DNA of 64,000 bases from an uncultured Chlamydiae bacterium (GTDB lineage Bacteria > Chlamydiota > Chlamydiia > Chlamydiales > JAJFMB01): assembly GCA_963696295.1 (NCBI GenBank), contig CAVOJR010000001.1:2432001-2496000 (forward strand), given 5' to 3'. A program made the translations under genes and the position numbers. Position 1 is the stretch's first letter, and the number at the start of each line of letters is the position of its first letter. Of the stretch, positions 7,081 through 8,178 are shown piece by piece. The notes below the pieces were generated by a model. The model made no database searches. It worked only from the letters and a program-made list of their open reading frames with translations, and was not told the DNA's origin.

Positions 7081-8178
7081 ATGAATATTTCCAACGATAA
7101 TTTAACGATAAAACTTTTCATTATTGAAAAAAATAAAATTGATGATAAAATTTTAGAAACACGCCGTTTCAACATCGCTTCTTCAGTAACCTATGAGATT
7201 TTCAAAAATATGCTTAATGTGTACTGCAAGGATGCAAAAGTTTCGGATAAATTCGTTTTCAAATACATCGATAGTGAAAATGACGAAATCACGGTCGATA
7301 GGGAAGAAGATTTTAAGATGATGATGGAATATCGAAAAACAAAAAACACTATTCAAGCCAAAATTTATACTTTTCCACTTACTCGTGATCTTCCTAATAG
7401 TATGCCTATTGCAGCAACAACAGTGAAGCCTTCAATTAATTCCAAATCTAATACCTCTCCTTCAGCTCCAATACCTTGCGCTGTTGCCAACAAAGCAGAT
7501 CCAATTCCTTTTGAGAAAAAAAACACCCAAGAAGAAGGCAGTATTGCCAATGGAAATACCAAGCAATACAATTGCGTCATCATCAAAAACAGCGTCGAGA
7601 CTCCCCCAGAAACACTGTTGCCAAATCAGCAATTCAAACACACTTGGCGTGTCAAAAATCAGTGGACTCGTTCTTGGGACCCCTCCTGTCATCTTGTGTT
7701 TGTTGGCGGCAAGAATGGCAAGCAAATAATACCGGATCTTATCTTGAAGAAGAATATTTTTGATCATAAAATTTCTCCGCAAGAAGAGGTGGATGTGAGT
7801 GTAGATTGTGTTGCTCCTGGCCAAGAGGGCAATTATTTCGGTTGCTGGAAATTAATATCTGAAGATGGTCATACATTTGGTCCAATGCTTCAAATAACAG
7901 TCAAAGTCAGCAACTCGAATTCAAATATTACTCCCACATTTATTGAACAACATCGCGATGTGTGGATCGATGAGCTCAAAAGGTTGAGCGATTTAGGATT
8001 TAGAGATAAAAACAATGATAGAATGTACCGCGATTTGCTTTTCCAAAATGATGGAAAAATCGAGAATGTCATTGCTAAATTGCGCCAGGAGAATGTAGTA
8101 AATAAAATTAAGGAAAACGATTTTAAAAGTAGAGTTCGCAATGCTAAAGGATTCCTAAAAAAGGAAGATGGAATATAA
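7081..8178 (+). CDS. NBR1/p62-like protein with PB1, FW (NBR1 Ig-like) and UBA domains
   Basis: PB1: LTIK...ETRRF plus KYIDSENDEITV. FW: FKHTWRVKN..W...VDVSV..VAP..EG.Y.GCWKL....G.TFG. UBA: ELKRLSDLGF...LL.QNDGKIENVIAKL. AAGGA RBS upstream. Confidence 0.8.
   Translation: MNISNDNLTIKLFIIEKNKIDDKILETRRFNIASSVTYEIFKNMLNVYCKDAKVSDKFVFKYIDSENDEITVDREEDFKMMMEYRKTKNTIQAKIYTFPLTRDLPNSMPIAATTVKPSINSKSNTSPSAPIPCAVANKADPIPFEKKNTQEEGSIANGNTKQYNCVIIKNSVETPPETLLPNQQFKHTWRVKNQWTRSWDPSCHLVFVGGKNGKQIIPDLILKKNIFDHKISPQEEVDVSVDCVAPGQEGNYFGCWKLISEDGHTFGPMLQITVKVSNSNSNITPTFIEQHRDVWIDELKRLSDLGFRDKNNDRMYRDLLFQNDGKIENVIAKLRQENVVNKIKENDFKSRVRNAKGFLKKEDGI

Follow-up and report, generated by a model that had tools for sequence, protein, structure and literature searches.

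A predicted PB1-FW-UBA protein of the NBR1 family in a low-GC island of an uncultured chlamydial chromosome

The stretch of DNA considered here (the window, 64,000 nucleotides, positions 2,432,001 to 2,496,000 of contig CAVOJR010000001.1 in assembly GCA_963696295.1 of an uncultured Chlamydiae bacterium) contains an intact open reading frame (ORF) for a protein, P0001, which, judged from its sequence and from structural models, is a genuine NBR1-family protein, structurally complete and of the branch that combines PB1, FW, and UBA without ZZ. The frame has neither an internal stop nor an intron, its ATG is the earliest start following the upstream stop, and it is preceded at close range by a Shine-Dalgarno-like AAGGA (Table 1), in agreement with the bacterial ribosome-binding site and intron-less gene claimed in a preliminary description of the locus. 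The AT-richness claimed there was likewise confirmed: the GC content of 36.2% and third-position GC (GC3) of 34%, against 47.1% GC for the chromosome, correspond to the 1.5th and 3.8th percentiles of the 1,364 ORFs of at least 300 amino acids. Upstream of the gene, a promoter scan gave no convincing sigma-70-like site, and neither the sites it scored nor those of a terminator scan exceeded the number expected from shuffled sequence; the inverted repeat downstream of the gene was scored on the minus strand, the plus strand having just TTT after the repeat. The gene resides on the 3,298,190-bp contig of a 3.43-Mb genome in two contigs, estimated to be 97.4% complete and 1.5% contaminated.

The N-terminal PB1 domain was recovered by Pfam (PF00564, E 4.5e-9; 36.6 bits, cut-off 23.6; residues 27-86), with an E-value of 4.8e-10 when the N-terminus was searched alone. 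In the full-length AlphaFold model, which was built from a 22-row alignment of relatives and has a mean pLDDT of 74.9, it forms a beta-grasp over its full extent, and Foldseek against the PDB matched it to the PB1 domain of NBR1 (2bkf, E 1.1e-5, TM 0.74) and also to the p62 PB1 filament (6tgy). Both faces of the domain to which the preliminary description had drawn attention are present, namely a basic face made up of K11, R28, and R29 and an acidic OPCA stretch (Y62-D64-E66-D68...D73-D77); in the same family alignment, K11, R28, R29, Y62, and D68 are conserved at 90% or above and D64 is invariant. Polymerisation of PB1 domains requires both the basic and the acidic face. According to a review of NBR1, p62 and plant NBR1 are able to polymerise through type-AB PB1 domains while metazoan NBR1 is monomeric, and it is the polymeric plant domain that the type-AB PB1 of P0001 resembles (PMC9582228). 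A predicted complex of two PB1 copies (residues 1-100, with alignment) scored 0.00, which is evidence for neither side.

Beyond a disordered linker lies the FW domain, identified by Pfam as PF16158 (N_BRCA1_IG; E 1.2e-21; 77.7 bits, cut-off 28; residues 178-276) and modelled as an Ig-like sandwich. The Ig-like domain was thus correctly recognised at the outset; its tryptophans, however, number exactly four (W189, W195, W199, and W256) rather than the three first listed, from which W195 had been omitted. When the FW region was compared with PDB sequences by phmmer, it matched ILRUN (1.2e-10), human NBR1 (3.9e-5), and fungal Nbr1 (0.002), and Foldseek likewise returned ILRUN (6vhi, E 3.2e-10, TM 0.84) and NBR1 (4ole, TM 0.81).

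The C-terminal domain is more divergent. No Pfam UBA model matched anywhere in P0001 or in its C-terminal 81 residues searched alone, and the NBR1-specific model PF24932, run across the genome at E<=10, did not match the P0001 C-terminus either. Because the preliminary description, which had reported a UBA with an LGF loop, had itself named a UBA missed by profile search as grounds for abandoning its reading, this result called for more work on the domain. A hidden Markov model (HMM) built from the UBA segments of 21 relatives, with the query left out, recovered the P0001 C-terminus at E 9.9e-5 (23.4 bits) as the sole match among the 40,951 six-frame ORFs of at least 40 amino acids in the genome, the runner-up having an E-value of 1.1. 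The C-terminal helices of the full-length model span residues 296-304, 310-322, and 327-364, and a separate model of residues 293-365 gave a three-helix bundle with a pLDDT of 80.3, for which all four Foldseek matches at E<=10 were UBA domains (Dsk2, ubiquilin-2), albeit weak ones (E 3.5-7.6). In a structural search of 48,161 chains, chain 2mj5_B of the human NBR1 UBA-ubiquitin complex ranked second (Z 5.6), superposing at a root-mean-square deviation (rmsd) of 1.4 Å over 45 residues with 24% identity, and other UBA/CUE domains came next. Z values near 5.6 are common for small helical domains, so that the fold alone is insufficient; on profile and fold together, the C-terminus is accepted as a UBA-like domain for which ubiquitin binding is predicted at most. 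The UBA is supported by the relatives' HMM, the three-helix model, and the NBR1 fold match, but not by Pfam. Residues G306 and F307 of its loop are conserved at 90% or above in the 22-row alignment, the domain carries a three-residue insert relative to the ZZ-less relatives, and the pLDDT drops to 57-66 in the basic extension of its last helix. Elsewhere in the genome, a 488-residue ORF belonging to no Pfam family (G000:C1:60720-62183, plus strand) shows a weak half-UBA match, LEELESMGF, scoring E 0.2 with PF24932 and E 1.1 with the family UBA profile.

Two modules associated with autophagy receptors were not found. No ZZ domain was matched by Pfam at E<=10 in P0001, whose six cysteines include no CxxC pair. 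The absence noted in the preliminary description therefore holds for P0001, but not as a trait of a bacterial mimic, since ZZ-less PB1+FW relatives exist; the ZZ-less architecture is probably a natural, eukaryotic branch and not the product of a bacterium deleting ZZ. The search criterion of the NBR1 review was FW together with PB1 or ZZ (PMC9582228), from which it follows that ZZ is not obligatory for the family. As for the LC3-interacting region (LIR), the absence of an acid-flanked motif was borne out by a canonical-motif scan of P0001, in which the four [WFY]xx[LIV] cores all fell within folded domains and none was acid-flanked in the linker.

A word-indexed search of 5.8 billion clusters matched P0001 to itself alone, whereas an exhaustive HMMER search of 1.84 billion representatives returned 3,086 proteins at E<=1e-3. 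The top matches were mostly multi-FW repeat proteins with 32-39% identity in FW, marked as bacterial by their names (e.g., Anaerolineae) and by contigs of up to 1.1 Mb, and a distinct subset of relatives (300-500 residues) aligned across the entire P0001. Pfam, applied to 30 of these short relatives, found PB1+FW in 12; UBA_NBR1_C was detected at E<=0.01 in eight of the 12 (four above cut-off) and in two N-terminally shorter relatives (five of these ten above cut-off), and ZZ in none of them. With our own domain HMMs, 35 of 160 proteins, the query included, were classed as PB1+FW+UBA. The invariant positions of the 22-row alignment are D64, N193, W199, P246, G250, G267, V276, and L334, and the functional residues K11, R28, R29, Y62, D64, D68, G306, and F307 are kept despite identities of 20-27%. 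The family profile matched, among solved structures, the FW of NBR1 (1.8e-25), the PB1 of plant NBR1 (6tgn, 7.7e-10), the PB1 of p62, and the UBA of NBR1 (2mgw/2mj5, 6.7e-7).

These ZZ-less PB1-FW-UBA proteins of microbial eukaryotes (including the metagenomic P0028, P0052, P0063, P0076, and P0110) share with P0001 the domain order, a colinear alignment, the lack of ZZ, the basic and OPCA residues of PB1, the four tryptophans, and the G-F loop of UBA. In most of them, FW and UBA are separated by a poly-Ser/acidic tract that P0001 and P0011 lack, and P0001 further differs in its long basic C-terminal helix and its location on a bacterial chromosome, the relatives being found on contigs of 1-1.7 kb. 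The best ESM-Atlas look-alike cluster (score 0.94, 212/256 features, PB1+FW) comprises 98% Eukaryota, among which Oomycota are the most frequent phylum, and is automatically named “putative UBA domain-containing protein”. The nearest relative, P0011 (361 residues, on a 5.8-kb metagenomic contig), is 33% identical overall and 38% over FW-UBA; it likewise has a PB1-like N-terminus, FW, and UBA, and is sister to P0001 in both trees described below, but possesses a second C-terminal UBA, lacks the long linker, and has a PB1 that falls under the Pfam cut-off (19 bits). A word search with P0011 as the query matched itself alone, and a genome-contig scan with P0001 as the query found nothing.

Among characterised proteins, NBR1 (human, plant AtNBR1, and fungal Nbr1) shares PB1, FW, and a C-terminal UBA with P0001 by sequence and by fold, whereas P0001 is one third the length of human NBR1 and is without ZZ, coiled coil, recognisable LIR, and amphipathic helix. 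p62/SQSTM1 has in common with P0001 a type-AB PB1 (LTIK...RRF, OPCA; fold match to 6tgy) and a C-terminal UBA, but contains ZZ, LIR, and a Keap1-interacting region (KIR) and no FW, while P0001 contains FW and no ZZ. The FW of ILRUN (C6orf106) is the best single structural match to P0001 despite a different architecture, in which an N-terminal UBA-like domain precedes FW and PB1 is missing. In bacterial FW proteins (XRE-FW, Chloroflexi multi-FW, and the FW-only chlamydial protein of Table 1), FW is 30-39% identical to that of P0001, but none of the 116 FW-only multi-domain proteins classed had the PB1 or UBA that P0001 combines. Bacterial FW proteins have been described, with FW sequences reported to cluster apart from those of eukaryotic NBR1 (PMC3357945), and NBR1 is described as pan-eukaryotic in the review (PMC9582228).

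Some 300-400 genomes of the order and the phylum were sampled, and P0001 was the sole PB1-FW-UBA gene found. It was matched in one of 41 relatives, i.e., in its own genome; of the 301 genomes examined in the order, two had PB1, the one besides P0001 being on a eukaryotic contaminant contig; PB1 was also found in two of 401 genomes of the phylum sample, the second having a different architecture, and in none of 14 control genomes. The contaminant contig, from a related metagenome-assembled genome, has a p62-like PB1-ZZ-UBA gene that an intron interrupts, alongside an Arf-like GTPase, an amino-acid transporter, and polyQ tracts, while the PB1 protein of the different architecture, encoded in another genome of the same order, adjoins a Trp-repressor gene and so places PB1 in a bacterial context. 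FW occurred in three of the 301 genomes of the order: P0001, the FW-only protein, and one match below cut-off. The three-domain NBR1-type architecture reported for this bacterial chromosome is real, with PB1 essentially absent elsewhere in the group. A search of open-access papers and preprints found no description of a bacterial PB1-FW-UBA protein or of a whole NBR1/p62-type receptor in bacteria, yielding only reviews of host receptors and papers on FW in bacteria. The features discussed are listed in Table 1.

Table 1. Features of the P0001 locus, of its island, and of related chlamydial contigs (coordinates are those of the window unless a contig is named).
Feature	Coordinates	Strand	Residues or length	Basis or remark
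P0001, NBR1-like PB1-FW-UBA protein	7081..8178	+	365 aa + stop	intact ORF
Shine-Dalgarno-like AAGGA	7068..7072	+		8 nt 5' of ATG, read from sequence
PB1 domain, type AB	7099..7371	+	aa 7-97	Pfam, model, Foldseek, residue conservation
Disordered Pro/Ser/Asn-rich linker	7384..7557	+	aa 102-159	pLDDT <50
FW (four-tryptophan, NBR1 Ig-like) domain	7573..7908	+	aa 165-276	Pfam, phmmer, Foldseek
Divergent UBA-like three-helix domain, loop L305-G306-F307	7957..8085	+	aa 293-335	relatives' HMM, models, fold
Basic C-terminal extension of helix 3	8086..8175	+	aa 336-365	model helix 327-364; no family match
Possible IS3-family transposase N-terminal remnant, upstream of P0001	6238..6546	+		NCBIfam NF033516, weak
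G+C-rich inverted repeat, possible terminator	8319..8356	.	16 bp	140 nt past P0001 stop
Broken gene remnant, downstream of P0001	8516..8863	-		4 stops in translation
Ankyrin protein, low-GC island	2107-2526			
Legionella_OMP-like porin, low-GC island	2947-4014			
Pectate-lyase-fold protein, low-GC island	4042-6027			
Leucine-rich repeat (LRR) protein, low-GC island	10031-11371			
FW-only protein, large contig of chlamydial genome G200	G200:C2 (L005) 1441-2052	+	203 aa	PF16158 E 8e-18; no PB1/UBA
Protein with N-terminal PB1 and unrelated helical C-terminus, chlamydial genome G432	G432:C143 (L021) 583-1719	-	378 aa	Pfam 29 bits (PB1)
Eukaryotic contaminant contig of related metagenome-assembled genome	G216:C115 (L004) 1-3152		3.1 kb	

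Taken together, the best overall explanation, to which we lend somewhat less than even confidence, is that P0001 is a eukaryote-derived receptor homologue which lies in a chlamydial island and acts in the host. As to its source, transfer from a eukaryote, probably a protist, is likely for P0001 or at least for its PB1 and UBA parts, and is favoured by the three-domain colinearity, the fact that bacteria almost entirely lack PB1 and UBA, the eukaryotic make-up of the look-alike cluster, and the base composition. As to its site of action, to our knowledge ubiquitin and PB1 partners are both missing from bacteria, so that P0001, if functional, would have to act in the host cytosol, a proposition we regard as evenly balanced. 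There, the type-AB PB1 would join head-to-tail PB1 polymers, either its own or those of a host NBR1-type receptor, the UBA would bind ubiquitin carried by marked cargo or by the vacuole of the bacterium, and the FW domain would bind a host partner. Since the LIR-like cores are confined to folded domains, P0001 could become part of receptor polymers, or cap them, and engage ubiquitin with no link to ATG8; with no recognisable ATG8-binding LIR, the assembly would be uncoupled from autophagosomes and selective autophagy of the bacterium would be blunted. Inferred as a whole, this mechanism must be called doubtful, and the fuller scenario, in which a chlamydia captured a complete autophagy receptor and the injected LIR-less protein inserts into or caps host NBR1 filaments while its UBA occupies the ubiquitin coat, thereby uncoupling ubiquitin from ATG8 recruitment, is unlikely in that complete form. 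The secreted anti-xenophagy decoy of the preliminary description is a reasonable hypothesis.

Enzymes and eukaryote-like mimics of E3 adaptors are known means by which intracellular bacteria blunt xenophagy. Amoeba-associated chlamydiae possess large, expanded families of eukaryote-like, ubiquitin-related F-box and BTB effectors of a type III secretion system (T3SS), for which a T3SS signal has been reported from a heterologous assay; the portion of that paper at hand contains no occurrence of PB1, UBA, NBR1, or autophagy (PMC4209131). These effectors resemble P0001 in bringing eukaryote-type ubiquitin-pathway domains into environmental chlamydiae, but are E3-adaptor mimics in expanded families, whereas P0001 is a single-copy receptor homologue (PMC4209131 for the effector families).

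Several observations weigh against action in the host or against a eukaryotic source. The fold of PB1 begins at residue 7, and the six residues ahead of it leave scarcely any free N-terminus for a classical type III secretion signal. The sole FHIPEP/sctV gene (G000:C1:255988-258185) reads in three frames with two frameshifts, not at obvious homopolymers, with copN/hrpJ next door, and ppdK is also split (window 25587-27982, plus strand) into PPDK_N (394 residues) and PEP-utilizers (403 residues) in different frames; these splits represent either assembly indel errors or real decay with many pseudogenes; for sctV, the choice is between such indels and a defective T3SS export gate. The sequence on both sides of P0001 is decaying, and the gene could be a recent passenger. 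Its C-terminus is invisible to the Pfam UBA models and the fold scores of that domain are modest, the top-ranked chain in the structural search being unrelated (Z 6.1 but rmsd 6.4 Å). The FW tree is no proof of a eukaryotic source, with FastTree and IQ-TREE in conflict and the approximately unbiased (AU) test rejecting neither. Lastly, the relatives are themselves without a consistent LIR: a conserved LIR in the relatives was considered as a contrast to P0001 and rejected, six of 37 being flagged by a crude motif rule, and in two of those six the printed motif was preceded by just two acidic, Ser, or Thr residues. The LIR-less state of P0001 need not, therefore, be a derived “decoy” trait and may simply be inherited.

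The first alternative is that P0001 is a neutral passenger, a recent eukaryote-like acquisition that is not secreted, perhaps not expressed, and heading for loss in a decaying island. Its flanks, an IS3-like remnant and a broken gene, lie in a low-GC island and speak for this, as do the lack of an orthologue in all 40 relatives, the start of PB1 at residue 7, and the frameshifted sctV of the assembly. The insertion sequence remnant noted in the preliminary description could be matched to the N-terminus of an IS3 transposase, but only weakly (NF033516, E 1.3e-3, 18 bits, over positions 2-53 of a 369-position profile), and Pfam gave no match there. The downstream remnant shares 72% identity over 368 bp with C1:122169-122536, and both flanks match other loci of the same chromosome in segments that are 72-91% identical. 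Against a passenger, the 365-codon frame has stayed intact with its Shine-Dalgarno-like site while its neighbours are broken, and none of the diagnostic residues in the three domains has been lost although identity to the nearest relatives is only 20-38%, which points to long retention under selection rather than recent arrival. On balance, we consider a neutral passenger rather unlikely.

A second alternative accepts delivery into the host but holds P0001 to be a working receptor and not a decoy, recruiting ubiquitinated host material or membranes to the vacuole for the benefit of the bacterium, e.g., as nutrients or membrane. It draws on the same domain evidence as the explanation preferred above, and it gains from the fact that the eukaryotic relatives, too, are without a uniform canonical LIR, so that the family may couple to autophagy in another way. 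P0001 has no LIR-like motif outside its folded domains, however. A working receptor would use a non-canonical ATG8-binding site or act through host NBR1; a pro-bacterial and an anti-autophagy outcome are, moreover, indistinguishable from the present evidence. Both the working receptor and either of these routes to autophagy strike us as quite unlikely.

The phylogenetic check proposed in the preliminary description was carried out on FW domains with a divided outcome, and it is here that a bacterial or mosaic origin has to be weighed, in which the lineage of P0001 and P0011 was built in bacteria from a bacterial FW together with PB1 and UBA modules, or in which the ZZ-less family is partly bacterial, instead of arising by one whole-gene transfer from a host. 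In a FastTree of 368 FW domains, P0001 and P0011 pair up with a support of 91, and weakly supported branches (16-79) place them amid bacterial multi-FW domains. IQ-TREE (LG+C20+F+G4) was run on 96 of these domains, comprising every PB1-FW-UBA row with a single FW, the neighbourhood of 27 tips in the FastTree, 35 others drawn at random, and the FW-only protein of G200, and instead nested the pair (SH-aLRT 96) in a 36-row PB1-FW-UBA clade (SH-aLRT 99). Constrained topologies were not rejected by AU tests, neither with the pair kept outside the PB1-FW-UBA clade (p 0.75) nor with the pair held with 25 bacterial domains (p 0.56). Besides the FastTree placement and the latter AU result, an origin in bacteria is favoured by the best database scores, which belong to the bacterial multi-FW proteins, by the PB1 of chlamydial genome G432 in another architecture, and by P0011 being known from its short metagenomic contig only. 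It is opposed by the colinear alignment of all three domains with 21 PB1-FW-UBA proteins, by the nesting found under the site-heterogeneous model, by the lack of PB1 in the control genomes and its near-absence from the group, and by the overwhelmingly eukaryotic Atlas cluster, and we deem it improbable.

Among public sequencing runs, none of RNA was listed as containing the stretch; in three soil-metagenome DNA runs, which contain 5-7% of the words sampled from the stretch and are uninformative on contiguity and expression, contigs of 150-260 bp covered the flank pieces 6154-6461, 6902-6985, and 8460-8846 and did not cover P0001. A chimeric assembly, or contaminating eukaryotic DNA joined to the chromosome, would suit a GC content far under the genome mean, the lack of a public run spanning the stretch, and the reality of host contamination in this group (G216:C115, with its p62-like gene), but it is highly improbable in view of the single 3.3-Mb contig with its low contamination, the uninterrupted ORF with a bacterial-type Shine-Dalgarno site, the surrounding 40 kb or so of equally low GC with bacterial-style genes, the paralogous segments of the flanks elsewhere on the same chromosome, and the different look of the true contaminant, whose 3 kb hold an intron, polyQ, and an Arf GTPase.

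Should P0001 act in the host as a eukaryote-derived receptor homologue, it would represent a natural, compact (365 residues), LIR-less receptor variant with which to probe the cooperation of PB1 polymer, ubiquitin, and FW partner, and it would argue that NBR1-dependent antibacterial defence predates animals and plants. Were the capture and dominant-negative action outlined above true, it would be the first pathogen-encoded autophagy-receptor homologue of that kind, with NBR1-type xenophagy already present in protists; were it a mere passenger, it would still constitute a clean eukaryote-to-chlamydia transfer of a three-domain gene.

The wider genome is chlamydial in character, with four TLC-type nucleotide transporters and with sctV and copN/hrpJ adjacent to each other. 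A tblastn search of P0001 against 72,556 plasmids gave no match; the only PLSDB match (same 72,556 plasmids) of traD, on the 135-kb second contig, was to a plasmid of Candidatus Protochlamydia naegleriophila (65% over 378 bp). The genes downstream in the window, among them acetyl-CoA transferase, ppdK, glycogen phosphorylase, phosphoglucomutase, and uvrA, are ordinary bacterial ones. The low-GC island extends over approximately 40 kb at 34-45% GC against 47.1%, taking in positions 1-24000 of the window and about 15 kb upstream (C1:2,417,000-2,456,000), and 3-kb windows below 40% GC make up 3.9% genome-wide. Apart from the island genes of Table 1, orphans at 818-1507, 9003-9956, and 12584-15070 matched nothing in Pfam or NCBIfam. 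The island also holds two large, divergently oriented, coiled-coil-rich paralogues (17600-20329, minus strand, 909 residues; 20447-23503, plus strand, 1018 residues), which show weak HicA-toxin-like C-terminal matches (E 7e-4 and 2e-3, below cut-off).

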